Sequence record: OQ174507.1 | Source of the DNA: Escherichia phage REP8 | DNA length: 64,000 nucleotides | Reading direction: 5' to 3' (one strand) | In this document: piece after piece, positions 2,749 through 58,334 of the stretch | How the letters are laid out: every line of letters starts with the position of its first letter | Numbering within the stretch: the first letter of the stretch is position 1 | The notes under the pieces: model-generated | Databases searched by the model: none | Seen by the model: the letters and a program-made list of their open reading frames with translations, nothing else | Told to the model about the DNA's origin: nothing | Program-made: the position numbers and the translations under genes

Positions 2749-4164
2749 ATGAGCGAATTATTTATACATGCGCACCTTCATGCAGGTCGAACTGAAAATG
2801 GTGCTGTAAACCATACTTCATCAATGTCTGCTCTTGTGGACTTTTACAAAGCTGCTGGTTCTAGCCGTAGCAATGTAGAAATCTTACCAGACTTGTTCTA
2901 CAAAGCTTTGCATGAAGATGTTGATGTTGCAGTTCGTATTTTACTGCATATGCGAGATGTACGAGAAGGTATGGGTGAGCGTAAAGCTTTCCGAACTGTT
3001 TTACTTCAAGCGATTGAAGATAAAGTTTTAGAGTCTACGCAGGTTCTTCGCATTATGGATAAGATTGCAGAACTTGGTCGTTTTGATGACTTCAAAATCT
3101 TCGTAGGTACTCGTTTCGAGACAGATGCCTTCAAACATTTAGAAGCAGCATTACTAGACCCTGCAACAGCAGGTTTAGCAGCTAAGTGGTTACCACGAGT
3201 AAAACCACGTCACAAACAGTTTGTAAAACGTTTCTGCAAGTTTGCAAACTTGAGTGAGAAAGAGTACCGCACACTGCTGTCTGCACTATCTGATACAGTT
3301 GAGCAAAAAATCTCTGCTAATGAGTTTGGTAAGATTGACTACAGTAAGATTCCTTCACTTGCTGCTGCACGTTACCAAAAACTGTTTAACCGTAAAGATG
3401 GAGAGCGATACAAAGCTTACATCGAGTCCTTATCAAATGGTGAGACTAAGATTAACGCTGGTGCTGTTTACCCATACGATGTGATTAAATCTGTCAAGTA
3501 TGGTAATGCAGATGTTGCTAATGAGCAGTGGAAAGCACTACCAAACTGGATGGTAGAAGGTGAAAACATCTTGTGTATGACTGATGTTTCAAGCTCAATG
3601 TCTTGGGTGAATCTTGGCTCAATTACTGCCCTTGATATTGGTGTATCACTTGCCTTGTATGTAGCAGAACGCAATACAGGTTGCTTTAAGAACGAGTTGA
3701 TGGTTTATTCAACAAACCCTCACTTCATCGAACTGAGTGGTGATTTACGAAACCGTCATCGTCAGGTGATGCGACACGTTGAATATGGCTCAACTAACTT
3801 ACAAGCAGCTTTTGACCGTATTCTTGAGATAGGTAAAAGAAACAACTTGACTCAGGAAGATATGCCAAGTAAGCTTATCATCTTCTCCGATATGGAGTTC
3901 AATCAGGTTGATGGTGCTAACGGTCGTACAAACTTTGAAGCAATTCAGAGTAAGTACAAAAAAGCTGGATATGAGATGCCACAACTGGTATTCTGGTATT
4001 TAGCAAACCGTAATGGTACTTGCGAAGTATCTGTTAAGGATAACGGTGTAGCAATGGTATCTGGTTTCTCTCCAGCCACTTTAAAAGCTCTGCTTGGTGG
4101 TGAGAAGTTTGACCCAACCAGTGTAATGCTCAAAGCAGTAATGATTGACCGTTATATCTGGTAA
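2749..4164 (+). CDS. vWA domain protein (MIDAS motif), possibly Ro60/TROVE-like
   Basis: 471 aa; DVSSSMS matches the DxSxS MIDAS motif of vWA domains; TROVE assignment is from memory only. Confidence 0.45.
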   Translation: MSELFIHAHLHAGRTENGAVNHTSSMSALVDFYKAAGSSRSNVEILPDLFYKALHEDVDVAVRILLHMRDVREGMGERKAFRTVLLQAIEDKVLESTQVLRIMDKIAELGRFDDFKIFVGTRFETDAFKHLEAALLDPATAGLAAKWLPRVKPRHKQFVKRFCKFANLSEKEYRTLLSALSDTVEQKISANEFGKIDYSKIPSLAAARYQKLFNRKDGERYKAYIESLSNGETKINAGAVYPYDVIKSVKYGNADVANEQWKALPNWMVEGENILCMTDVSSSMSWVNLGSITALDIGVSLALYVAERNTGCFKNELMVYSTNPHFIELSGDLRNRHRQVMRHVEYGSTNLQAAFDRILEIGKRNNLTQEDMPSKLIIFSDMEFNQVDGANGRTNFEAIQSKYKKAGYEMPQLVFWYLANRNGTCEVSVKDNGVAMVSGFSPATLKALLGGEKFDPTSVMLKAVMIDRYIW

Positions 4165-4183
4165 AAAGTTTTAAAAAGGGTAT

Positions 4184-4212
4184 TGACAATGTGTTTAATA
4201 CCCTTTAATATG
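4184..4212 (+). promoter_or_regulatory. sigma70-like promoter overlapped by an 8 bp inverted repeat (possible operator)
   Basis: TTGACA, 17 bp spacer, TAATAT; AGGGTATT/AATACCCT inverted repeat spans the -35 box and spacer. Confidence 0.5.
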
Positions 4213-4274
4213 TTCTACATAGAAACGAAATGAGAGCTTTTCTAAGATACTGAAAAATATTTTAAAAAAGTTCT

Positions 4275-4304
4275 TGACAATCACTAAAAAATAATGTTAA
4301 AGTG
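4275..4304 (+). promoter_or_regulatory. sigma70-like promoter (weaker -10) upstream of the tRNA array
   Basis: TTGACA, 17-18 bp spacer, TTAAAG/TAAAGT. Confidence 0.35.
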
Positions 4305-4329
4305 GTTACATAGAGTTTGAAAAGTTTAT

Positions 4330-4406
4330 CTCTGTTTAGCTCAGCTTGGTAGAGCGTTCCGTTTGGGGCGGTAAGGCCGGAGGTTCAAGTCCTCCAACAG
4401 AGACCA
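4330..4406 (+). tRNA. tRNA-Pro (anticodon TGG)
   Basis: acceptor CTCTGTT/AACAGAG, T-arm GGAGG-TTCAAGT-CCTCC, anticodon loop TTTGGGG, CCA encoded. Confidence 0.6.
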
Positions 4407-4413
4407 AATTAAT

Positions 4414-4491
4414 GTTCCAGTAGACAAAATGGTAAAGTCACCACTCTTTCAAAGTGGATATCTGAGGGTTCAAATCCCTTCTGGAACGCCA
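4414..4491 (+). tRNA. tRNA-Glu (anticodon TTC)
   Basis: acceptor GTTCCAG/CTGGAAC, anticodon stem CCACT/AGTGG with loop CTTTCAA, CCA encoded. Confidence 0.6.
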
Positions 4492-4582
4492 GTTTTGACA
4501 GAAGACCAATTACAGCAAACTTAATCTACTCATCTGACAAGAAATCGGACAAAGAAGATATTTGGTCTGGTCATTAAGAATT

Positions 4583-4656
4583 GCGGGTATAGAGAAAGGG
4601 CGTCTCACATGTCTCATTAGCATGGTATCGGCAGGTTCGACTCCTGCACCCGCCTC
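4583..4656 (+). tRNA. tRNA-Met (anticodon CAT)
   Basis: anticodon stem CATGT/GCATG with loop CTCATTA; T-arm GCAGG-TTCGACT-CCTGC; acceptor register uncertain. Confidence 0.5.
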
Positions 4657-4742
4657 CAAATTTACAGAAGACCGTTTACAGCAACATTTATTAAATTTTT
4701 AGCGGAAAAAATTGAAAGATACGGTCTGGTAATACTAAATAT

Positions 4743-4816
4743 GGTTAGGAAGCACATAAGGTATGTGCGGTCGCCTGTTAAGCGAATGGCACAGGGTTCG
4801 AATCCCTGACTAACCG
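4743..4816 (+). tRNA. tRNA-Asn (anticodon GTT)
   Basis: D-stem GCAC/GTGC, anticodon loop CTGTTAA, T-arm CAGGG-TTCGAAT-CCCTG; no CCA encoded. Confidence 0.55.
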
Positions 4817-4827
4817 CAAATTTAAAT

Positions 4828-4915
4828 GTGTCGTTATCCCGTAGATGGTAGCGGTGGGGACTGTAAATCCCTTGTCATTGAGACTCGGTAGGTTCGACTC
4901 CTACACGGCACACCA
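4828..4915 (+). tRNA. tRNA-Tyr (anticodon GTA), long variable arm
   Basis: 88 nt; acceptor GTGTCGT/ACGGCAC, anticodon stem GGGGA/TCCCT with loop CTGTAAA, CCA encoded. Confidence 0.55.
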
Positions 4916-4920
4916 ATAAA

Positions 4921-5006
4921 GGTTATGTAGTTTAATTTGGTTAAAATACTTCCACGTAAAAGGATATTGGGAGATGATGTGAGTTCAAGTCTCATCGTAG
5001 CCGCCA
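4921..5006 (+). tRNA. tRNA-like gene, anticodon arm unresolved
   Basis: 86 nt; good acceptor GGTTATG/CGTAGCC, T-arm GTGAG-TTCAAGT-CTCAT and CCA, but no canonical 5 bp/7 nt anticodon stem-loop found by hand. Confidence 0.35.
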
Positions 5007-5158
5007 ATTTTGAGAGGGCTATTTAGAACCTCCCTTAAAGGGTTCTTACGAGTATCCTTTAAAGGAGCAGAAGACCAAATTCAGCAAGTTACTTAAAATT
5101 TCAAGCCAATTCAATTTTGAAAAATTTAAAACTTGGTCTGGCTCAACAAATTTACAGA

Positions 5159-5283
5159 AGACCGTTTACAGCAAAACTTAAACAATCTATTTCTCGGTAA
5201 AGAAAAGGAGAAGGTTCGATTCCTTCACTCGGCAGATGTCGAGTTGGTGTAATGGTAGCACTTAAGATGATAAACAACGGTCT
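5159..5283 (+). ncRNA. circularly permuted tRNA-like module closed by an 8 bp stem (Y-RNA-like candidate)
   Basis: order is T-arm GAAGG-TTCGATT-CCTTC, acceptor 3' strand ACTCGGC, AGAT, acceptor 5' strand GTCGAGT, D-arm-like GGTGTAATGGTAGCAC; flanked by AGACCGTT (5159-5166) / AACGGTCT (5276-5283). Confidence 0.35.
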
Positions 5284-5286
5284 GGT

Positions 5287-5430
5287 AATTATCTTTGTAG
5301 ATAAGTTATTAAGCTTACCTGTGAGTATGCGACCACAAAGGGTGAAAGGGTAAATTCTAGATTTAAACCCAACAAGGCACATCGCTACAGACCTTAAGCA
5401 AGTCTGGGTAGCTTATCTACAAAGATAATT
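5287..5430 (+). repeat. structured element closed by a perfect 19 bp inverted repeat
   Basis: AATTATCTTTGTAGATAAG (5287-5305) pairs with CTTATCTACAAAGATAATT (5412-5430); ~106 nt interior holds sub-hairpins. Confidence 0.55.
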
Positions 5431-5434
5431 TAAT

Positions 5435-5510
5435 GGAAGTGTAGCAGAATGGTGATGCGGCAGACTTTTAATCTGACAGGCGATGGGTTCGAATCCCTCC
5501 ACTTCTACCA
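5435..5510 (+). tRNA. tRNA-Lys (anticodon TTT)
   Basis: acceptor GGAAGTG/CACTTCT, anticodon stem CAGA/TCTG with loop CTTTTAA, CCA encoded. Confidence 0.55.
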
Positions 5511-5514
5511 AAAT

Positions 5515-5590
5515 GGTTCAGTCGCAGATAAGGTAATGCAAGGGTCTCATAAGCCCTATGAATGTGGGTTCGATTCCCATCTGAACCTCC
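5515..5590 (+). tRNA. tRNA-Met or Ile2 (anticodon CAT)
   Basis: acceptor GGTTCAG/CTGAACC, anticodon stem AGGGT/GCCCT with loop CTCATAA, CCA encoded; 1-72 paired so not a bacterial initiator. Confidence 0.55.
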
Positions 5591-5593
5591 AAA

Positions 5594-5669
5594 GCTGTGA
5601 AAGCACATATGGATGTGCATTCGGCTGATAACCGAAAGGCAGAAGGTTCGAATCCTTCTCACAGTACCA
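5594..5669 (+). tRNA. tRNA-Ile (anticodon GAT)
   Basis: D-stem GCAC/GTGC, anticodon stem TTCGG/CCGAA with loop CTGATAA, T-arm GAAGG-TTCGAAT-CCTTC, CCA encoded. Confidence 0.65.
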
Positions 5670-5684
5670 ATTTCAATAAAGTTG

Positions 5685-5713
5685 TTGACATTGAGATGTG
5701 ACCACTTTATAGT
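5685..5713 (+). promoter_or_regulatory. sigma70-like promoter inside the tRNA array
   Basis: TTGACA, 17 bp spacer, TATAGT. Confidence 0.5.
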
Positions 5714-5917
5714 AACCTTAGTTTTCGTTGCGTAGCGTCTATTTTGCAAATTTAAAATAAATGCAAACGACAATGTTTTTCTGGCAGTAGCTTGATAGGC
5801 TAAACACCAGTGAGGTCTTCCAACCCCTCATCAAAGAATTTGGCGTACTAGCCCACGGTATGATTAATAAGGTGGGCATCTTTAAGGGCTTTCTAAGAGA
5901 GTCTTTAAAGATAATTA

Positions 5918-5999
5918 CGGGGCGTATCTCAGCTGTCTTCTAAACAGCCGTTAATCGAGTAAGTGGAGTATGCGGGTTCGAGTCCTGCCGCCTCGACCA
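5918..5999 (+). tRNA. atypical tRNA-like gene with Arg-type anticodon loop (TCT)
   Basis: 82 nt; acceptor CGGGGCG/CGCCTCG, perfect hairpin GCTGT-CTTCTAA-ACAGC, T-arm and CCA present, but only ~5 nt where the D-arm should be. Confidence 0.35.
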
Positions 6000-6238
6000 A
6001 TTTAGTTAGCAGATTACTTAGACGACCTTAGCGGGTCTTCCTGTAGGGAGGTGGTCTGTATCTCATGTTTTCCAGAACATGTAAATAATCTGAGAAGGGG
6101 CTTTACAGTGTTGAGATAATACGGTAAGCTTCGAATTATAGTATGGGACGATGTTAAGACTCTAAGGCATGAGCAACGGCTTCCAACACCGTTTCAAAGG
6201 GGTTCAACTCCTCCGTCACATGCCAAAGTCTTATTAGG

Positions 6239-6326
6239 GGTAGGTAGCGGCTAATGGTAGCCAAACTGTCTTGAAAACAGTTGCCACTGTAGAGATACGG
6301 TGAGGGTTCGACTCCTTTACTTACCG
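6239..6326 (+). tRNA. tRNA-Ser (anticodon TGA), long variable arm
   Basis: 88 nt; acceptor GGTAGGT/ACTTACC, anticodon stem ACTGT/ACAGT with loop CTTGAAA. Confidence 0.55.
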
Positions 6327-6483
6327 CCTAATAAGATTTAAAGCCAAGCTTCATTCGGATGTTGCTTTGGTATACCGCGTGTATTGTTGTACACATTGAT
6401 AAAACACCTAGTAGGTGTCACGGAGAAGAGATAATATCAAGCTCTCCAAAGGTTCTAGTCACCGGATTAAACAAGACTATGCA

Positions 6484-6505
6484 AAGACCTTTTTAGGTCT
6501 TTTTA
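6484..6505 (+). terminator. rho-independent terminator-like hairpin inside the tRNA array
   Basis: AGACC-TTTTTA-GGTCT followed by TTTTT. Confidence 0.4.
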
Positions 6506-6583
6506 GAGGGCTTCTAAGGTTATTACAGCTTGTTGTGGAACCTTGTTGCTTAGGTTCTTAGAAGTTCTCTAAAAAGACTTAAT

Positions 6584-6661
6584 GGGAGATTGACGGTAAT
6601 TGGTAAACCTATCTCGCTTAGAACGAGATGTTTGAGGGTTCGAATCCCTTGTCTCCTACCA
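6584..6661 (+). tRNA. tRNA with anticodon TAG (Leu by anticodon; short variable region)
   Basis: acceptor GGGAGAT/GTCTCCT, anticodon stem TCTCG/CGAGA with loop CTTAGAA, A73, CCA encoded. Confidence 0.45.
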
Positions 6662-6668
6662 AATTAAT

Positions 6669-6744
6669 GCAGGTGTAGCAAAATGGTTATGCGGCTGACT
6701 CTTAATCAGTAAGACGATGGGTTCAATTCCCTCCACCTGTACCA
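6669..6744 (+). tRNA. tRNA-Lys (anticodon CTT)
   Basis: acceptor GCAGGTG/CACCTGT, anticodon stem GCTGA/TCAGT with loop CTCTTAA, CCA encoded. Confidence 0.55.
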
Positions 6745-6750
6745 GACATT

Positions 6751-6826
6751 GGGGATGTAGTTTACATGGTTAAAACATAAGTTTTGCAAACTTAAGTACA
6801 GGGTTCAATTCCCTGCTTCTCCACCA
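6751..6826 (+). tRNA. tRNA-Ala (anticodon TGC)
   Basis: D-stem GTTT/AAAC, anticodon stem TAAGT/ACTTA with loop TTTGCAA, T-arm CAGGG-TTCAATT-CCCTG, CCA encoded. Confidence 0.6.
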
Positions 6827-6832
6827 ATTAGT

Positions 6833-6907
6833 GCATCCATAGTTTAAACGGGAAAATTACAGTCTTCCAAACTGAGGTTGAGGGTTCGATTCCCTCTGGA
6901 TGCTCCA
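6833..6907 (+). tRNA. tRNA-Gly (anticodon TCC)
   Basis: acceptor GCATCCA/TGGATGC, anticodon loop CTTCCAA, T-arm GAGGG-TTCGATT-CCCTC, CCA encoded. Confidence 0.55.
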
Positions 6908-6913
6908 AATAAT

Positions 6914-6990
6914 GCTGCTTTCGTATAATTGGCTATTACACATCCCTTGTAAGGATGGAAATGCAGGTTCGAGTCCTGTGAGCAGCACCA
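6914..6990 (+). tRNA. tRNA-Thr (anticodon TGT)
   Basis: acceptor GCTGCTT/GAGCAGC, anticodon stem CATCC/GGATG with loop CTTGTAA, CCA encoded. Confidence 0.6.
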
Positions 6991-6992
6991 AT

Positions 6993-7080
6993 TCAGAGGT
7001 CAAGTGAAAGACCGCTGGTGTCAACTGAAGACCGTAACAAATTCCACGGAGTTGAGTTAGCGGCACAACTTCAGACCTCT
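6993..7080 (+). ncRNA. long imperfect hairpin (candidate small RNA or processing element)
   Basis: nested stems CAGAGGTC/GACCTCTG, CCGCT/AGCGG, CAACT/AGTTG, CCGT/ACGG; contains a GAAGACCGT motif. Confidence 0.35.
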
Positions 7081-7085
7081 TTCAC

Positions 7086-7160
7086 ACTCGCTTAGTTTAT
7101 ATGGTAAAACATCACCCTTACAAGATGAAGAAAAAGGTTCAAGTCCTTTAGTGAGTACCA
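7086..7160 (+). tRNA. tRNA-Val (anticodon TAC)
   Basis: acceptor ACTCGCT/AGTGAGT, D-stem GTTT/AAAC, anticodon loop CTTACAA, CCA encoded. Confidence 0.5.
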
Positions 7161-7161
7161 T

Positions 7162-7239
7162 GTTCCAGTATCCCAATTGGCAGAGGATGCAAGCTCAAAC
7201 CTTGTATTAGTGACGGTTCGAATCCGTCTTGGAACACCA
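7162..7239 (+). tRNA. tRNA with anticodon CAA (Leu by anticodon; short variable region)
   Basis: acceptor GTTCCAG/TTGGAAC, anticodon stem GCAAG/CTTGT with loop CTCAAAC, T-arm GACGG-TTCGAAT-CCGTC, A73, CCA encoded. Confidence 0.45.
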
Positions 7240-7258
7240 ATTTTAAGAGGCTATTTAG

Positions 7259-7816
7259 ATGAGATATTTGAAGTATGCTTCATGGATTTTCCTAGCTTTA
7301 CTAGAGCCATTTGCAGCAACCCTAGCAGTCATCTTAGCACCTTTCGTAGTTCCATTCTACAGTGAGAAGAAAGGGCATCTACCTTTTGGATTCAGATGGA
7401 TGGAGACCTATGACAACCCGATTGATGGTGACAAAGGCCACGTTGAGAGATGGGCTAAGATTAGAAAGATTGGTAAGCTCGGTGTTTATATGCAGAGAGT
7501 TGGGTGGCTCTGGAGAAACAAAGCTTATAACTTCTCTTACCATGTATTAGGAAGAGATGTAAAAGATGTTACTAAGTGGAAAGGTAATATCAACGTAAGT
7601 TCTGACCCTGAAGATAATCAGACTGGTTATCTCCTAATGTGGAACAGTAATGCTTGGGGATTATTCGCTTTTATCCCATCAATTAAAGTCTTTGGTAAAC
7701 AGTTTTACTGGAGAATTTATATTGGATGGAAACTAAAAAGCGTTGTCCCAGAAGAAAGAGCATTCTCAAGGGAAAGAGTTATGTTGGCATTCTTTATTCA
7801 TCCACTGAGAAAGTAA
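7259..7816 (+). CDS. hypothetical membrane protein encoded inside the tRNA array
   Basis: 185 aa; AAGAGG RBS 8 nt upstream of ATG; hydrophobic N-terminus (WIFLALLEPFAATLAVILAPFVV). Confidence 0.45.
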   Translation: MRYLKYASWIFLALLEPFAATLAVILAPFVVPFYSEKKGHLPFGFRWMETYDNPIDGDKGHVERWAKIRKIGKLGVYMQRVGWLWRNKAYNFSYHVLGRDVKDVTKWKGNINVSSDPEDNQTGYLLMWNSNAWGLFAFIPSIKVFGKQFYWRIYIGWKLKSVVPEERAFSRERVMLAFFIHPLRK

Positions 7817-7824
7817 AGATTTAA

Positions 7825-7900
7825 AGGGGATTAGTTTACAAGGTTAAAACCTCGGTCTTTGAAATCGAAGAAGTTGGTTCAATTCCAACATCCCCCGCCA
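7825..7900 (+). tRNA. tRNA-Gln (anticodon TTG)
   Basis: anticodon stem TCGGT/ATCGA with loop CTTTGAA, T-arm GTTGG-TTCAATT-CCAAC, CCA encoded. Confidence 0.5.
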
Positions 7901-7902
7901 AT

Positions 7903-7981
7903 GCTCCATTACTCCAATTGGCAGAGAGGCCAGACTTAAAATCTGTGTTATGTATCGGTTCGAATCCGATATGGAGTACCA
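7903..7981 (+). tRNA. tRNA with anticodon TAA (Leu by anticodon)
   Basis: acceptor GCTCCAT/ATGGAGT, anticodon stem CAGA/TCTG with loop CTTAAAA, A73, CCA encoded. Confidence 0.45.
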
Positions 7982-7986
7982 AATTT

Positions 7987-8062
7987 AGCGGTATAGCATA
8001 ACTGGCAATGCAACAGTCTCTGAAGCTGTCCTATTAAGGTTCAAATCCTTATGCCGCTGCCA
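7987..8062 (+). tRNA. tRNA-Gln (anticodon CTG)
   Basis: acceptor AGCGGTA/TGCCGCT, D-stem GCAT/ATGC, anticodon stem ACAGT/GCTGT with loop CTCTGAA, CCA encoded. Confidence 0.55.
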
Positions 8063-8093
8063 CTTCTAAGGATTCTTGCGAGAGTCCTTAAAT

Positions 8094-8169
8094 GTGGCCT
8101 TATCATAAATGGTAATGACCCATGCTGTGAACATGGTCTATACGGGTTCAAATCCCGTAGGTCACCCCA
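8094..8169 (+). tRNA. tRNA-His (anticodon GTG)
   Basis: acceptor GTGGCCT/AGGTCAC, anticodon stem CCATG/CATGG with loop CTGTGAA, C73, CCA encoded. Confidence 0.6.
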
Positions 8170-8174
8170 ATTTA

Positions 8175-8251
8175 TAGTCCAAGTAGCTTATATGGTTAAA
8201 GCGCGTGTCTGAAAAACATGAGAAGAGGGTTCAAATCCCACTGGACTACCA
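8175..8251 (+). tRNA. tRNA-Phe (anticodon GAA)
   Basis: acceptor TAGTCCA/TGGACTA, anticodon stem CGTGT/ACATG with loop CTGAAAA; 3' end register uncertain. Confidence 0.5.
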
Positions 8252-8267
8252 ATTTCAAAGGTGCTTA

Positions 8268-9002
8268 ATGAAAGAGATGACAGAACAAGGTAAGGAGATT
8301 TTTAATCTCTTAAAAACCGGTAAAGGGTTTTCTAATCCCCTTATTACTGGTGCAGCAGTCCTCGGTGGAACCGTAGCTGCTTCTACATCACTTGTAAGCT
8401 CTATTAGTTCTGTAACAGACCCTACAATGAAGGAGAAACTTGTTACTGCTGGACTTACAACAGTCCTTCTAAACAGCTTTACAACAAGCCTTACAAGCAC
8501 TACAGCAACTACTAAGACCCTAACAGACTACGGTCAAAAGTCTATTGATGAGTTTTCATCACGTATGCAGGTAGCAAAGGGATACTCTAATGTTATGGGT
8601 GCAGCAGGAGAACAAGTTGGTTGTACACCATTCAGTGGTATTATGGGTGTTGCTACAGAGTATGGTCAAAAAGCTATTGACATGATGAACAGTACACTAG
8701 ATAGTGTTAATGGTGTGTTAAGTGACTTACAAGATGCTATTGATAAGGGTCTTGATACTGTTTCTGATTTAGCTGAGCAAGCTGTTAGTAAGATTAATGA
8801 AGGTATTTCGAAGATTACAGCTTATGCAGATGAAGTTGTGCAGATGATTGAAGAAGAAGCTGCCCTTATTGCAGAGTACCTTAAAACGAATATCAATGGG
8901 TTCTTAGCAGGTATCTTACCAGACTGGTTTGATGATGCTTGTAAAACTGGTGTGATTGAAACTATTGCAACACCAGAAATGAAGAGCGCATTACAGAAAT
9001 AA
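8268..9002 (+). CDS. hypothetical protein
   Basis: ORF-track frame 8205..9002 begins inside tRNA-Phe; in-frame ATG at 8268 with AAAGG upstream is the more likely start. Confidence 0.4.
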   Translation: MKEMTEQGKEIFNLLKTGKGFSNPLITGAAVLGGTVAASTSLVSSISSVTDPTMKEKLVTAGLTTVLLNSFTTSLTSTTATTKTLTDYGQKSIDEFSSRMQVAKGYSNVMGAAGEQVGCTPFSGIMGVATEYGQKAIDMMNSTLDSVNGVLSDLQDAIDKGLDTVSDLAEQAVSKINEGISKITAYADEVVQMIEEEAALIAEYLKTNINGFLAGILPDWFDDACKTGVIETIATPEMKSALQK

Positions 9003-9004
9003 AT

Positions 9005-9097
9005 GGAAGATTAACCCTAAAAGGTAAGGGAGCAGTTTGCTAAACTGCCAGTAGCTGAGAAATCGGTGTACCAGTTCAAGTCTGGTATCTTCCTCCA
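9005..9097 (+). tRNA. tRNA-Ser (anticodon GCT), long variable arm
   Basis: 93 nt; perfect acceptor GGAAGAT/ATCTTCC, anticodon stem GCAGT/ACTGC with loop TTGCTAA, CCA encoded. Confidence 0.6.
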
Positions 9098-9101
9098 ATT
9101 T

Positions 9102-9177
9102 GAATCCGTGACAGAAATGGCTATGTGCCTGTCTGCAAAACAGGTTTATAAGGGTTCGAGTCCCTTCGGATTCTCCA
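9102..9177 (+). tRNA. tRNA-Cys (anticodon GCA)
   Basis: perfect acceptor GAATCCG/CGGATTC, anticodon stem CCTGT/ACAGG with loop CTGCAAA, CCA encoded. Confidence 0.65.
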
Positions 9178-9339
9178 AATTATTTTACTCTCTCTCAATT
9201 AAAATAATAATAATGCCCTGCTATAAGTATTCTTCCTTTCGCTACCGAAGAGTATTTTTAGACAGGGCTTTTTTACAGAGTTATACTTTATAAGAAGGCT
9301 TATACAGTATGTCTCTGACGTACATTGTGGTTTCTCCTT

Positions 9340-9363
9340 GACGGTCTCTGTGCCGTCTTTTTT
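9340..9363 (+). terminator. rho-independent terminator at the end of the tRNA array
   Basis: GACGG-TCTCTGTG-CCGTC followed by TTTTTT. Confidence 0.55.
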
Positions 9364-9399
9364 AAGGGGAAACAATATTAATTATTTGGAGAAAACATA

Positions 9400-9600
9400 A
9401 TGAGCGAGAACGTTTATAAAGAACTTTATGAAGCTAACAAGAAGTTAGAGTTTATGCAGAATACCATCATGGCAATTGCAGACAGATTATCTGTAGCAAC
9501 AGGTATTGATATTAAAGAAGCATCTATGGATGCACTTCTTGATGCTGTTGATGCAAAGTTCGAAGTTAAGAAAGAAGAGACTGCTACAGGCTCTGAATAA
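9400..9600 (+). CDS. hypothetical small protein
   Basis: 66 aa ORF directly upstream of the large terminase. Confidence 0.3.
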   Translation: MSENVYKELYEANKKLEFMQNTIMAIADRLSVATGIDIKEASMDALLDAVDAKFEVKKEETATGSE

Positions 9601-41232: not shown

Positions 41233-41500
41233 CATCTGGTCAATACACTCGCAAGGTGTACCAGTTCTCTTATGAACTTCTCCGCATTTCTACGGAGTGT
41301 CGGACTATATCACGTAGTAGTAATACTACCGTTGCACTTGGGAATGGTCATTAGCTTACCACCCTACTCTACTCAGTTCATACATTAAGTATGCTTTTCG
41401 ATAGTCTCTGAACGTTCCTCTCAAGAGGCTTCGCTGCTGATTACCGTATCTTCTCAGACTTAGGCTTCCAGCAATTCACAACGTTTTACATGCGCCACTG
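41233..41500 (-). ncRNA. group I intron in the DNA polymerase gene
   Basis: 268 nt; exon ends ATGCGT and intron nt 6-11 GCGCAT form P1; GTTCAGAGACTA (R) and GATATAGTCC (S); last nt G; opens with a stop in frame; no ORF inside. Confidence 0.6.
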
Positions 41501-43673
41501 ACGCATAAATGCCATTTTTGGCTTTCTTACGACCTTTTGTAATCTCGTGGAGAAGTTCCTCATCCTGTGTCTCCCTGCAACGAACAATATCCTCTTCTTT
41601 GTTAAGACCAAAGTAAATACTGTTCAGTGTATGCGCATCAGTCCCTGTGTAGACTTCATAGAGGTCGTTCTCAGCATCATAACGAAGATACTTATCAGTT
41701 TCTGGATTAAGATACTTATCGAGATGCTTGCAATAGTATCTGCCATCTTCTTGCTTAGTGAACTCTACTGACTCTTTACCCTCAGTTACCGCTTTGGTGA
41801 ACTCTTTATCACCCATAAAGTTACAAAGAAGAACAAGCTGTGCAGAGTTCTGGTCAACTGAAACGATATTAGTCCCTTCCTCGCAAATCCAAACCTCCCT
41901 CATAGGCGCTCCATAGACAGCAGCACCAGACGGTACGTTTACAATACCATATTGTGTCATACGTCCAGTTGAAGTACCAAACACCATTGCACCAGCACTA
42001 AGGCGACCATCAGGACGAATCTGGTTCAACCAACCTTTTTCATCATCCTTTGAGTTCTCAATAGTTCTGCGTCGGTGCATCAAAGTATAGTACTTAGCAA
42101 TCTTCTGTCCAAGCTCACCTTCAATCGTGTCATAAGATGATTCAGTAAGTTTTGGTGAAGTACGGATTAAGCAAGGCTCAAGCAAATCTGTGTATTTCTT
42201 CACAGACCAGTTATGTTCAATGTACTGTACACCTTCATGCTCAACATAGCTCAAACCACACCGCTCAACCATTTCCTGCCACTTAGGATGCTTTGTAATC
42301 ATCTTTTTATTGTCTTTGAAACGACAAACTTTAACAGGGCGACCATCTGAGTCTTTCTTGTAGTTCCAGTCATCTGGAATCCAACCAACTGATTTCAAGT
42401 AGTCTTTAACAACTGCTACCTGAGTCATACGAGAAACTTCAAACTCAATTGGTGTATACGGTGCATCAATCAAACCTGTGTAGCGACTCGACTCAAGCTC
42501 AAAGTGGTTAACAACGTGGCTGTTATAGTACTTCACAGTTTTGACTGTTTTTACTGGCTTCCAGTCTTTGCATTTCTTACCAATCTTTGCGTTCAACTCA
42601 TTGCAAATTGCACGAGCATCCTTCATTGCTACAAAACCTTCTTTGTACTCTTCACCAGTTACAGAGTTGGTTGGTGTATAGCAATTCCGCTTTTCAATGT
42701 TAAAAATCTTTGTAGTTGGCTTACCAAATGGCTTGATTTCATATGTCTGCATCTCACCGTTACGTACCTGTTGACGATACTTTGTCTTAGGGTACTTGGT
42801 AATTCTCTTCAGTCCATCTGCATGACCAAATGCTTCAACATACTCATTCCAAGCTTTTGCAAACTCTTCTCCAGTGACTTTACCTTTGGTCTTAATAGTT
42901 GGAGGTAGATGTGGTTCAACCTCTGAAGCAAGCTCATTAGTCAACTTGTCAAGTTCCTTTACATGGAACTCCATAAGTTCTTTATCAGCTTTCCAGCCAT
43001 TGATAGCTTGTTGACTCATCCAGAAAGATGTTTCTTTAGCTCGCATGTAGGTTTCATAGGTGTCTACGCCACACTTCTTTAGCTTCAGATATTCATTATC
43101 CAATGCACGTTTAGTTTTGGCGTTGATACGGATATCTTCTACAACACGAGTGAAGATTTCTGCATTCCACACACCCCAATGTTCAATCTCTGGTTTACGA
43201 ACACCAACACGAGCACCCCATGCAGCCAAGCCATGAGCACCTTTATAACCCTTTGGAGTTGGCCTATCCATCCACTGAACACGAGACTGGATAAGAGAAT
43301 CCTGAAAGAAATTACTCCACGGTTTACACTTTGGATTATCAAAGTTCCATAAATCAGGTGCAATGTGATTGAAAACCCACCAGTCATAACCGAGACCGTT
43401 ATGGATGCAAAGACGTTTTGCCTTTAACGCAAATTCAACACCTTCACGTAAACCACCCTTGATGTACTTAGTGTACTTGTGACCGAGGATAGGTTCATCT
43501 GTAAAGACCCATACAGGTGGCTCTTCATCGTCAGATTTATAGTCTGCGAAAGCCATTACGTGCACTTTAGTGAACTCAAGAAGTAAACCATCAGTTTCTG
43601 TATCACCAACTAAATGTAAGTTTTTAAAATCTACGTTTTCCATTTTTACTCCCTCTAAAATCATTAACCTCAT
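41501..43673 (-). CDS. DNA polymerase (family A, T7-like), exon 1
   Basis: N-terminal exonuclease motif LVGDTETDGL; ends ...RKKAKNGIYA in the middle of motif B. Confidence 0.65.
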
Positions 43674-56821: not shown

Positions 56822-58018
56822 ATGAACAAAGTACAGATTATTAAAAAGAATGGCTCACTCGAAGAACCTGATATCAAAAAAGTTTTAACAGCAGTCACAA
56901 AGTCAGCTAATAGGGTTGGGTATAAAGAACTCCCGCCAGATGTTACCCAAGCTCTTGAGTCAGCATTTATGAGGGTTCTGGTAAAATCCACTAAGCAGAA
57001 TAATTTACTCGTTTCAGTAAATGATATTCACAGTATTGTTGAGGGTGCTTTGGCAGAAGTCAATCACGAGATTTATGAGTCTTACTCAACATATAGAAAT
57101 TACCGTAAAGAGGTTGCTCAAAACTGGGATGAACTCTACCAGAAGACTAAAGATACACTCTTCTTAGGTGACCGTGAAAATGCTAATTTTGACAGCAGTT
57201 TAATTTCTACGAAAGGTTCAATTATCCGTGGTTACCTGACTAAAGAAATCTTTAAACAGTATCATCTAACACCAGAGGAACTTGAAGCCATTGAGAAAGG
57301 CTTTGTCTATATCCATGATTTAAGAGACCTGATTTTTGGTGGTATTAACTGTTGCCTGTTTGACATTGGTAAAGTACTAAAAGGTGGCTTTGAAATGTCC
57401 GGCATTGAGTACTGTGAACCTAAATCTGTACTGTCAGCGTTGCAGGTTATTGGTGACGTAGTACTTTCAGCAACTGCACAGCAATTTGGTGGTTTTACTT
57501 TAGCAGAGATTGATAAGGTACTTGTACCGTATGCGAAGAAGTCTCTACGCTATCATGCTGAGAAAGCATCATCTTATGGTATCCCTAAAGAGCATTACCA
57601 CAATTATGTCATGGAGCAGCTACAGATTGAACTGACTCAAGGTTTCCAGTCGCTTGAAATGAAACTAAACACTGTACCTTGTAGTCGTGGGGATTTTGCA
57701 TTTACAACTTTGACATTCGGGTTACTTGACTCAGACATGTCTAATGAAGACAACCGACTGCAATACATGATTGCAAGTACTCTCCTAGATGTTCGTATGA
57801 ATGGACAAGGTAAGAGTAAGAAGCCTGTTGTATTCCCTAAACTGGTTTATATTTATGACCAGAAGAGACATAATGAGAATATCTGTCAAGGCCACCTGTA
57901 CAGTAAAGCTATAGAGTGTTGCTCTAAAGCGATGTATCCAGATTTCTTAAGTGTATCTGGTCATGGTGCTGTAGCAGAAGCTTTTGAGCGTTCTGGTAAG
58001 GTTATTTCACCGATGGGT
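56822..58018 (+). CDS. nrdD: anaerobic ribonucleotide reductase, exon 1
   Basis: ATP-cone-like N-terminus; ends ...ISPMG with T as last exon nucleotide; an in-frame TAA opens the intron. Confidence 0.65.
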
Positions 58019-58334
58019 TAACAAGCTCTATAGCTCATCTAAAACGTGCCTAAACAGGGAAACTCTACAGATGTAGACAATCCTGTGCTAAATGATGTAC
58101 GATGTAAGAAACTATACAACATAGGGGTCTTACATGCCAAATAACTTCGAATATGAGTTTGGATACATCTAAATGCCGAACGACTAACCGTGATGAATGT
58201 AGCGGTGTAGGGTCAAGCGACTCGAAATGGTACGCTACTTAGAAATAAGTAGAAGATATAGTCTGGACTTACTGGCGACAGTAAGCAGCTTGAATAAAGC
58301 GGGGTAAGCGTAGCGAACTTACCTGAACAACAAG
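58019..58334 (+). ncRNA. group I intron in nrdD
   Basis: 316 nt; AAGATATAGTCT (S element), GACTAA (R/P7 region), last nt G, preceding exon ends in T; no ORF inside. Confidence 0.6.

Follow-up and report, generated by a model that had tools for sequence, protein, structure and literature searches.

The bacterial and phage Y RNA-like RNAs called YrlA have a terminal stem that carries a variable-arm-like (V) hairpin, a T-arm, a closed acceptor-like stem and a D-arm (PMC4201824). The YrlA of Mycobacterium smegmatis has an acceptor-like stem of 7 bp, is a substrate of RNase P and gains CCA, and the conserved Ro-binding motif of YrlA RNAs, GNCGAA(N0-1)G, lies on the 5′ strand (PMC4201824). YrlA RNAs are further characterized by binding to Rsr/Ro60 and by tRNA modifications that TruB and DusA make. 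Among phages, the Ro60 protein of Thermus phage phiLo (PDB 9KOP, 9L5Y), which comes with Yrl1 and Yrl2, has been shown to bind Y-like RNAs (PMC12135203). Here we describe a locus of Escherichia phage REP8, in a stretch of 64,000 nucleotides from sequence record OQ174507.1 (the window), where the gene of a protein with a predicted Ro60-like fold precedes four predicted small RNAs inside a tRNA gene cluster. One of these RNAs, at 5152-5288 on the + strand, carries a tRNA-like head and is called the element below. We consider it likely that the four are Y-like RNAs of the Ro60-like protein, docked by a bulged helix and the motif UACAGCAA, with their apical parts serving as effector or decoy modules. 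The fold of the RNA and its covariation, the Ro60-like fold of the neighboring protein, the repeated neighborhood of gene and RNA across phage lineages, and an intermediate form in mycobacteriophage Faith1 all support this reading.

The element is about 137 nt long, and all of its parts lie on the + strand. Its ends form what we call the docking module. The 5′ half (5152-5174), invariant among orthologs, consists of the first strand of an outer stem P0, TTAC (5152-5155), the internal-loop nucleotides AGA (5156-5158), the first strand of stem P1, AGACCGTT (5159-5166), and single-stranded TACAGCAA (5167-5174). The 3′ half (5276-5288) supplies the second P1 strand, AACGGTCT (5276-5283), an unpaired G5284 and the second P0 strand, GTAA (5285-5288). 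Written as RNA, the closing helix is AGACCGUU/AACGGUCU (5159-5166 with 5276-5283), and an asymmetric internal loop, AGA on the 5′ side and G on the 3′ side, separates it from the 4-bp outer stem TTAC/GTAA (5152-5155 with 5285-5288).

The tRNA-like head lies between these halves. A V hairpin (5186-5209) stands 5′ of the T-arm GAAGG-UUCGAUU-CCUUC (5210-5226), in which G53, U54, U55, C56, A58 and C61 are canonical. The T-arm is followed by a closed acceptor-like stem of 7 bp, one of them U-G (5227-5244). Its strands are ACUCGGC (ACTCGGC in the DNA, 5227-5233) and GUCGAGU (GTCGAGT, 5238-5244), and its loop AGAU (AGAT, 5234-5237) begins with an A73-like A at 5234. By analogy with M. smegmatis YrlA, an RNase P-type cleavage site is predicted between 5237 and 5238. 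A U8-G9 linker (TG, 5245-5246) leads into the D-arm GUGU-AAUGGUA-GCAC (5247-5261; linker and arm together 5245-5261), where A14, G18, G19 and A21 are present. All canonical nucleotides of the tRNA tertiary contacts are in place in the head (U8, A14, G18, G19, A21, G53, U54, U55, C56, A58 and C61).

The minimum free energy (MFE) fold (-35.5 kcal/mol, z = -3.0) reproduces all of these arms as well as the V hairpin and the outer stem, and none of 200 shuffled sequences was equally stable. A preliminary description of this DNA, made from its letters, had seen between tRNA genes a T-arm, a 7-nt strand ACTCGGC joined by a 4-nt turn to GTCGAGT (seven pairs, one of them G-U) and a D-arm, and had read them as a tRNA whose 3′ half precedes its 5′ half and which has no anticodon arm. 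These features are where it placed them, the order is as it read it, and the structure prediction it proposed as a check agrees. The stem that it drew around the module is real, and the helix reaches further than it had supposed, through the extra 4-bp outer stem. The MFE fold also contained a 4-bp 'anticodon-stem-like' helix, CUUA/UAAG, which we dropped because relatives do not keep it. Neither the MFE fold nor comparison with relatives gave a conserved helix for an anticodon stem-loop in the element.

The location between tRNA genes is agreed on by ARAGORN and Rfam, which place 23-24 tRNA genes at 4330-9177; the element is flanked by an odd 86-nt tRNA (4921-5006) and by tRNA-Lys (5435). The 2.1 kb around it is 100% identical to Escherichia phage REP9, in whose record the element has no annotation; identity to Felix O1 and to many further Felixounaviruses is 95-97%. 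At both gathering and permissive thresholds, Rfam called no curated family at the element, including YrlA, tRNA and tmRNA_permuted, and ARAGORN called no tRNA at it. The Rfam tRNA model recognized the T-arm only (12.4 bits, model positions 43-63). A custom scan for a T-arm, closed stem and D-arm in succession returned this single instance on the two strands of the 64-kb window. An open reading frame (ORF) overlaps the element on the minus strand, with 76 aa here and with two 'hypothetical proteins' of 50 aa and 36 aa in its place in phage Bas63, which is 97-99% similar. Because this ORF varies between near-identical phages, and because orthologous elements differ by 4 to 8 nt in length, we take the element to be non-coding.

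The element is widely conserved. At least 80% of its length is kept in 245 of the 252 matching phage records. In six Ounavirinae of three genera, 162 of 162 pair cells hold standard pairs, and the acceptor-like stem has been rebuilt in three ways (ACUCGGC/GUCGAGU, ACACGU/GCGUGU and ACCCUUC/GAAGGGU). The V hairpin was omitted from the pair counts because MAFFT gave no structural alignment between REP9-type and HP1-type sequences; in HP1 and Moogle its place is held by a hairpin of other sequence. A covariance model built from the six Ounavirinae sequences only then found full-length matches in Klebsiella phage FBKp34 (57.0 bits, E = 1.4e-9), Bacillus phage FADO (56.9 bits), Enterococcus phage VRE9_3 (49.7 bits) and mycobacteriophage Faith1 (39.4 bits, E = 1e-5). 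Members with the tRNA-like part lie at 6689-6813 of the FBKp34 locus, 7155-7289 of that of Cronobacter phage S13, 561-688 of VRE9_3, 2485-2609 of FADO, and 2342-2475 and 3531-3646 of Sinorhizobium phage phiN3. The D-arm of VRE9_3 is identical to that in the window.

A cross-family alignment was made from 23 sequences of six lineages, all of them significant matches to the model. In it 99.0% of cells are paired, a value somewhat inflated by the fitting of the alignment to the model, compared with 75.5% when sequences were shuffled and 36-44% when partners were slid. The preliminary description had made its fold hinge on covariation, and 24 of the 27 pairs show changes on both sides (compensatory changes). 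None of 500 shuffles equaled any of the five measures used. Four of the five T-arm pairs and all seven pairs of the acceptor-like stem covary across families, as do P0 and inner P1 pairs. The Ounavirinae-only counts and the independent recovery of the RNA in other families are free of the weakness that comes from model fitting.

The element is one of four RNAs with the same ends. The motif AGAAGACCNNWTNCAGCAA, found at the 5′ end, occurs four times, against 0.15 expected, and GGTCTGG follows each occurrence after 60-125 nt. The three short siblings, all on the + strand, have no tRNA-like part. The first (4496-4573) has an outer stem TGAC/GTCA, the loop AGA/G, a stem AGACCAA/TTGGTCT, TTACAGCAA and a variable hairpin, and fills the spacer between tRNA-Glu and tRNA-Met (50.0 bits, E = 5e-8, with covariance model R1). 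The second (4662-4732) fills the spacer between tRNA-Met and tRNA-Asn (57.2 bits, E = 1e-9, same model) and has an outer stem TTAC/GTAA, the shared docking module and a U5/A5 hairpin. The third (5065-5144) joins an outer stem GAGC/GCTC and a docking module with the variant AAATTCAGCAA to a long A/U hairpin. Copies 1 and 2 occupy their tRNA spacers to within 3-10 nt.

In the MFE folds, all four siblings share a closing architecture of a 4-bp outer stem, an AGA/G loop and an AGACC/GGUCU helix. The loop and this helix are invariant among them and are followed by two or three more pairs and by single-stranded U-N-CAGCAA. Around this core the siblings covary, both in the outer stem (UGAC/GUCA, UUAC/GUAA, GAGC/GCUC) and in the inner pairs (CCAA/UUGG versus CCGU/ACGG). 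This covariation is not circular, because the search that found the copies used a sequence motif and did not ask for pairing. The docking module can be summarized as stem, UACAGCAA, stem, UG. Orthologs do not vary in P0, the AGA/G loop or P1, and the four paralogs have these parts in common while differing in their apical modules. This is the general layout of Y RNAs, a terminal helix with a conserved internal loop joined to a variable effector module, with the Ro60 site putative.

A sigma-70-like promoter, TTGACA-18-TAAAGT with a TG (4274-4303, + strand; 10 of 12 consensus positions), stands upstream of tRNA-Pro. Judged by consensus match only, it is the probable start of a transcript that holds the tRNAs and the four RNAs. 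A consensus scan gave a second sigma-70-like site at 4183-4211. No terminator-like site was found on the + strand between 4330 and 5685. Given these promoters, the lack of a terminator and the filled spacers, the four RNAs would leave the tRNA polycistron by tRNA end processing.

The proposed partner is encoded about 1 kb upstream of the element, on the + strand, by ORF 2749-4164 (471 aa). It has a helical DUF2828 part and a vWA/DUF7788 domain with a complete MIDAS (metal ion-dependent adhesion site). Pfam recognizes DUF7788 (2e-44), DUF2828 (5e-29) and, weakly, VWA_2, and the product belongs to PHROG 850, 'RNA-binding protein'. An AlphaFold2 model based on 46 homologs has a pLDDT of 89.8 and a pTM of 0.89. 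When this model was compared with the PDB by Foldseek, the 11 best matches were all Ro60/TROVE structures aligned over the whole length (about 520-560 aligned columns, E 3e-8 to 2e-6, TM 0.5-0.65), among them Xenopus, human and Deinococcus Ro60 and the Ro60 of Thermus phage phiLo. The matches after these were isolated vWA domains with E above 3e-3. The fold of the protein, as modeled, is Ro60-like: a helical-repeat ring with a C-terminal vWA domain and its MIDAS. The MIDAS motif noticed in the preliminary description is borne out, as D279, S281, S283, T349 and D381 are invariant in the 46 homologs. Its suggestion of a Ro60-type partner holds for the fold, with those 11 best PDB matches, and does not hold for a TROVE domain by Pfam HMM, so that the neighbor of the element is Ro60-like by fold, has a vWA MIDAS and has no TROVE match by sequence.

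This protein is 97% identical to its ortholog gp130 of phage Bas63, which counters the Ppl defense according to genetic evidence (PhageMaP preprint, 10.1101/2024.10.10.617714). The authors of that work suspected Y RNAs in the adjacent tRNA cluster, among the annotated tRNAs, and named no RNA (10.1101/2024.10.10.617714). Bas63 has the element (154 bits), which overlaps the annotated minus-strand CDS bas63_0137. Whereas annotated tRNAs were suspected in Bas63, the element described here is not an annotated tRNA. Two small minus-strand CDSs of Bas63 annotated as 'hypothetical protein', bas63_0137 (82748-82900 of the Bas63 record) and bas63_0138 (82912-83022), lie over RNA loci and are probably mis-annotated. 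If so, published gene-essentiality data for bas63_0137 and bas63_0138 would report on RNAs.

The docking module recurs beside relatives of this gene. By tblastn, the Ro-like protein was found in 709 phage records of many families. We scanned 13 loci from distinct lineages for a 6-bp stem with N-W-N-CAGCA after its 5′ strand and UG after its 3′ strand. The scan gave 71 matches, compared with a mean of 7.25 and a maximum of 11 in composition-preserving block shuffles. Matches of 50-135 nt cluster beside the gene, on the same strand, in phages of Campylobacter, Listeria, Staphylococcus, Enterococcus, Bacillus, Sinorhizobium, Aeromonas (seven copies), Synechococcus, Klebsiella and Cronobacter. Counted by lineage, the docking module stands beside DUF2828-type genes in at least 10 other phage lineages, and some of the loci (in mycobacteriophages and in Staphylococcus and Campylobacter phages) have few or no annotated tRNA genes within about 1.5 kb. 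Because the scan required pairing, the docking stems of its matches are not independent covariation, and we rely instead on the enrichment over shuffles and on positions that were not forced. A looser scan required no more than the stem, a 3-nt spacer and CAGCA; of its 59 matches, 46 have A directly after CAGCA and 35 have UG directly after the 3′ strand.

The module also occurs in a second arrangement. Over-long 'tRNAs' of 113-122 nt stand beside the Ro-like gene in phages of Klebsiella (7003-7116), Cronobacter (6895-7016 and 7025-7138), Aeromonas (2494-2610) and Synechococcus (6669-6782; all locus coordinates). Their acceptor, D and T arms are normal, and a capped docking module lies in or beside the anticodon region, in the order 3′ strand, UG, small loop, 5′ strand, NNNCAGCA. 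The Aeromonas example reads GGAGUC-UG-AGA-GAUUCC-UUACAGCAA. The Rfam tRNA model matches these RNAs with a long insert, and ARAGORN does not call them. In the Klebsiella case a GUC anticodon arm is retained. The two arrangements are circular permutations of each other: in the window the docking stem is open and the acceptor stem capped, and in the over-long 'tRNAs' the acceptor stem is open and the docking stem capped. The two joinings make a strong circumstantial case that the docking module is a portable, putatively protein-binding unit that has been grafted onto tRNA-shaped bodies.

Some of the capped acceptor-like stems have a sequence in common. Those of Cronobacter phage S13 (7203-7264), Sinorhizobium phage phiN3 (2389-2453) and the Klebsiella phage (6730-6788) share a CGGGGA(G/A)...(U/C)UCCCCG core with C1-G72 and an A73-like base, and in S13 and phiN3 ACCA follows the 3′ strand, like an encoded CCA end. 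These features hint at RNase P/CCA-type processing or at mimicry of a particular tRNA.

The link to curated YrlA RNAs runs through the cluster-L mycobacteriophages. In these phages a DUF2828+DUF7788 protein, annotated as 'Ro-like RNA binding protein', precedes about 360 nt that carry no annotation, and in this gap our custom scan found the same permuted tRNA-like module. The Rfam YrlA model (RF02553) aligns to the gap RNA over its full length in LeBron (39.8 bits, E = 1.6e-7) and in Faith1 (21.7 bits, E = 0.029), in both cases below threshold and in permissive local searches only. The Faith1 RNA reads GGACUCC-UACAGCAA...GGAGUCC, with the motif of the window after the 5′ stem strand. Because this RNA is scored by RF02553 as well as by the Ounavirinae model, it connects the window element to curated YrlA, although such a chain does not amount to Rfam membership. 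At the gathering threshold, RF02553 had no match in six distant DUF2828 loci.

There is a mechanism that would fit these results. The DNA at 5152-5288 would encode a non-coding RNA of the Y kind, co-transcribed with the phage tRNA cluster and set free by processing of the tRNAs on either side. Its two ends would pair into the bulged closing helix, leaving the UACAGCAA that follows single-stranded, and this docking module, common to the siblings, may be the binding site for the Ro60-like ring protein. The head, with its V hairpin, T-arm, capped 7-bp acceptor-like stem and D-arm, would show a tRNA elbow to tRNA-recognizing enzymes. By analogy with Ro60 and its Y RNAs, the head could tether tRNA-recognizing enzymes or nucleases to the ring, gate access to the ring, or act as a decoy. 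Genes for RNA-repair enzymes stand near the Ro-like gene in two other phages: an RtcB-type 'tRNA-splicing ligase' in a Listeria phage (locus 7808-9019) and RNA ligase 2 in an Aeromonas phage (locus 10071-10994). These neighbors fit a context of tRNA damage and repair for the ribonucleoprotein.

Several results weigh against this interpretation, and the model-fitted alignment and the scan selected for pairing, both mentioned above, belong with them. First, gp130 alone rescues T7 on Ppl hosts (10.1101/2024.10.10.617714), and therefore its anti-Ppl activity does not require phage RNAs. Second, the tRNA-like element is lost in Salmonella phage FG1m and Escherichia phage ESCO45, where short copies 1 and 2 and the Ro-like gene persist, so the tRNA-like RNA is dispensable and accessory. 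These natural deletions have also removed short copy 3 and the adjacent tRNA-Asp, and in ESCO45 (locus 2580-2640) only the last ~39 nt of the element are left. Third, Pfam found no TROVE match at E<=1 in ORF 2749-4164 or in five homologs; PDB searches with the protein sequence and with a 46-member profile likewise gave no Ro60 match. Fourth, the preliminary description had proposed a search with YrlA models, and RF02553 had no match at 5120-5310 (191 nt) even at E<=10, nor in 4200-9400. The motif GNCGAA(N)G is also absent: the 5′ strand reads UUACAGAAGACCGUU, with only a GAAG core in common. Finally, the pairing-and-motif scan found no docking module near the gene of Vibrio phage nt-1.

If the Ro-like gene were a mere neighbor, the RNAs would still be real and structured, and their docking module would bind some other host or phage protein, or would process or insulate the tRNA operon. 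We regard this as unlikely, if the most serious of the alternatives. It would explain why gp130 counters Ppl without RNAs and why the short Ounavirinae copies fill the tRNA spacers almost exactly, like processing spacers. The Class I RNAs of Dictyostelium, which have a matching module, are moreover reported to bind the RRM protein Rnp1A. However, the modules adjoin the DUF2828-type gene also in loci with few or no annotated tRNA genes nearby, and a classical RNase III site would need a longer helix than these 4 + 8 bp interrupted by an internal loop. A sequence-specific protein is suggested by the single-stranded 8-mer and the internal loop, both of them invariant, and bulged terminal helices of this sort are bound by Ro60 homologs (PMC4201824, PMC12135203).

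The intact tRNA elbow, the 7-bp acceptor-like stem and the missing anticodon loop would also suit a standalone tRNA-shaped decoy or sponge for host enzymes that cleave or modify tRNAs in defense, with no need for the Ro-like protein. The element does lie inside a tRNA cluster, the literature holds that phage tRNA clusters may counter tRNA nucleases, and the element is accessory. A decoy of this kind is nevertheless improbable, as it leaves unexplained both the adjacency of the Ro-like gene and a docking module that is common to three siblings without any tRNA-like part.

Permuted tRNA genes of the red alga Cyanidioschyzon merolae yield a working tRNA through circularization. In the element, the T-arm and 3′ acceptor strand likewise precede the 5′ acceptor strand and D-arm, and ACCA follows the 3′ acceptor strand in Cronobacter S13 and Sinorhizobium phiN3. 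It is very unlikely, however, that the element is a permuted tRNA gene whose product is circularized and cut again into a working tRNA. The place of the anticodon is taken by single-stranded linkers and the docking helix, its sole 4-bp candidate is not conserved, ARAGORN and the Rfam tRNA model do not call the element, and there is neither a known circularization machinery nor a bulge-helix-bulge motif. Just as hard to credit is debris, a decayed tandem-tRNA junction or a recombination scar: tandem tRNAs can mimic the T-arm, stem and D-arm (one scan hit, at 5487-5547 of the Moogle locus, was such a false positive) and recombination is active in the cluster, where relatives differ by insertions and deletions, but the stem linking the halves has compensatory changes, the RNA is conserved across genera and families with the same docking module, and 245 of 252 matching records keep it.

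The Y-like RNA interpretation has several consequences. The coordinates given here, with the docking module, define four candidate partner RNAs of gp130, one of them a tRNA mimic. The recurrence of gene and module suggests a general phage ribonucleoprotein that joins a Ro-type ring to tRNA-shaped RNAs. Such a particle would bear on tRNA-targeting immunity, on RNA repair and on the evolution of Y RNAs from tRNAs.

Other features were seen in the window and in the loci compared with it. Directly 3′ of the element, at 5287-5434 on the + strand, is a 148-nt structure with a 24-bp closing stem around three or four hairpins (MFE -47.9 kcal/mol, z = -5.7, none of 200 shuffles equally stable). By eye, its closing stem seems to covary with that of Citrobacter phage Moogle (UAGAUAAG/CUUAUCUA versus CAGUGACU/GGUUACUG, locus ~3135-3285). 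The structure has no match in Rfam and could be a site of RNase III-type processing or a further non-coding RNA; its counterpart in Bas63 overlaps the annotated CDS bas63_0138. The 86-nt tRNA at 4921-5006 (+) is annotated as tRNA-Thr(CGT) in REP9, and relatives have a 77-78-nt tRNA-Asp(GTC) there. ARAGORN does not call it, the Rfam tRNA model gives it 41 bits, and its anticodon region appears altered or enlarged. At 5917-5996 (+) lies a degenerate tRNA-like sequence, 'tRNA-OTHER' in REP9, with a weak Rfam tRNA-Sec score (25 bits) and no ARAGORN call, where relatives have tRNA-Arg(TCT). Two group I introns, at 41280-41563 (-) and 57911-58285 (+), exceed the Rfam gathering score with 61.7 and 55.4 bits. 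Elsewhere, the tRNA cluster of the Listeria phage contains a drum RNA (941-1039, 50.2 bits, above the gathering score) and a ROOL-like RNA (3428-3979, 88.5 bits, just below it), and the Synechococcus phage locus has a permuted tmRNA at 695-1125 (111.9 bits, ARAGORN tag ANDETFSMALAA).

Of the systems to which the four RNAs can be compared, the most distant is eukaryotic. Class I RNAs, reported to be unique to Dictyostelia, have a short terminal stem, CCUUACAGCAA by the 5′ strand, conserved ends and a variable interior, and U3, C6, C9, A10 and A11 of their 11-nt motif are invariant. To our knowledge, no link between these RNAs and Ro-like proteins has been described. Their Rfam family, RF01414, is the sole one that matches the phage short RNAs, and its consensus, GaUcuC-CUUACAGCAA...GagAuC-UG, has the layout of the phage docking module. 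The two share a stem that joins the ends, (CC)UUACAGCAA after the 5′ strand, UG after the 3′ strand and a variable interior; Class I RNAs are also about 50-65 nt in size and have many paralogs. Copies 1, 2 and 4 (GUUUACAGCAA, AAUUACAGCAA) keep all five of the invariant positions, and copy 3 (AAAUUCAGCAA) keeps four. Every phage score lies below the RF01414 gathering score of 41.5 bits. Three Aeromonas phage copies (525-577, 4140-4193 and 4598-4660) reach 28-30 bits (best 29.8), with E of 0.16-0.47 for the whole library and about 4e-5 to 1e-4 for one family; Faith1 has 18.9 bits, and the window has 18.8 bits at 4504-4569 and 13.2 bits at 5160-5284. As a match of letters, the Class I motif in the phage RNAs is a resemblance only.

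It is tempting to speculate further, although we find the following doubtful. The pattern stem, UACAGCAA, stem, UG could define a large RNA family that partners DUF2828-type Ro60-like proteins in phages of Gram-negative, Gram-positive, actinobacterial and cyanobacterial hosts, with the Dictyostelium Class I RNAs as its eukaryotic branch. It would come in three formats: bare hairpins, RNAs whose stem is open and whose tRNA-like head is capped, and RNAs with a tRNA body in which the capped module replaces the anticodon region. Class I RNAs, whose mechanism has so far been obscure, would then be Y-like RNAs of a Ro-related protein, and the resemblance, if it reflects homology, would give them a first mechanistic hypothesis.

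Permuted tRNA genes and the two-piece permuted tmRNA are alike to the element in that the 3′ half of a tRNA is encoded before the 5′ half. They differ in that the element lacks an anticodon arm and an mRNA-like part and is called by neither the tmRNA_permuted nor the tRNA model of Rfam. In the literature we searched, we found no description of this RNA or of the docking-module family, and a text search for the motif returned unrelated primer sequences only. The phiLo system is closer. It too has a phage Ro60-fold protein with several small Y-like RNAs beside its gene, and structures of that protein rank among the best fold matches of the ORF 2749-4164 model. However, the RNAs of phiLo were recognized from a CGAA motif, their place is upstream of the gene, and the accessible part of the report does not mention a tRNA-like head or UACAGCAA for them (PMC12135203).

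The closest likeness is to YrlA. The preliminary description had compared the element to the YrlA plan of a terminal stem with a tRNA-mimicking domain, and the comparison stands: the V hairpin, T-arm, closed acceptor-like stem and D-arm follow one another on an end-to-end stem in the published YrlA order, and covariation supports the fold. The element also has the UA/UG linker, a 7-bp acceptor-like stem as in M. smegmatis YrlA, and a gene beside that of a protein that is Ro60-like by fold. It differs in docking by an AGA/G loop and UACAGCAA in place of GNCGAA(N)G, in having a DUF2828/DUF7788 partner that is not a Pfam TROVE protein, and in sitting in a tRNA operon with three siblings that lack a tRNA-like part. 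Because its docking module differs, it lacks the YrlA motif and it falls outside the YrlA sequence model (gathering score 69 bits), the element is not a member of YrlA. Our results support its placement as a conserved structured RNA beside a Ro60-fold protein and as a new variant of the Y RNA kind, outside YrlA.

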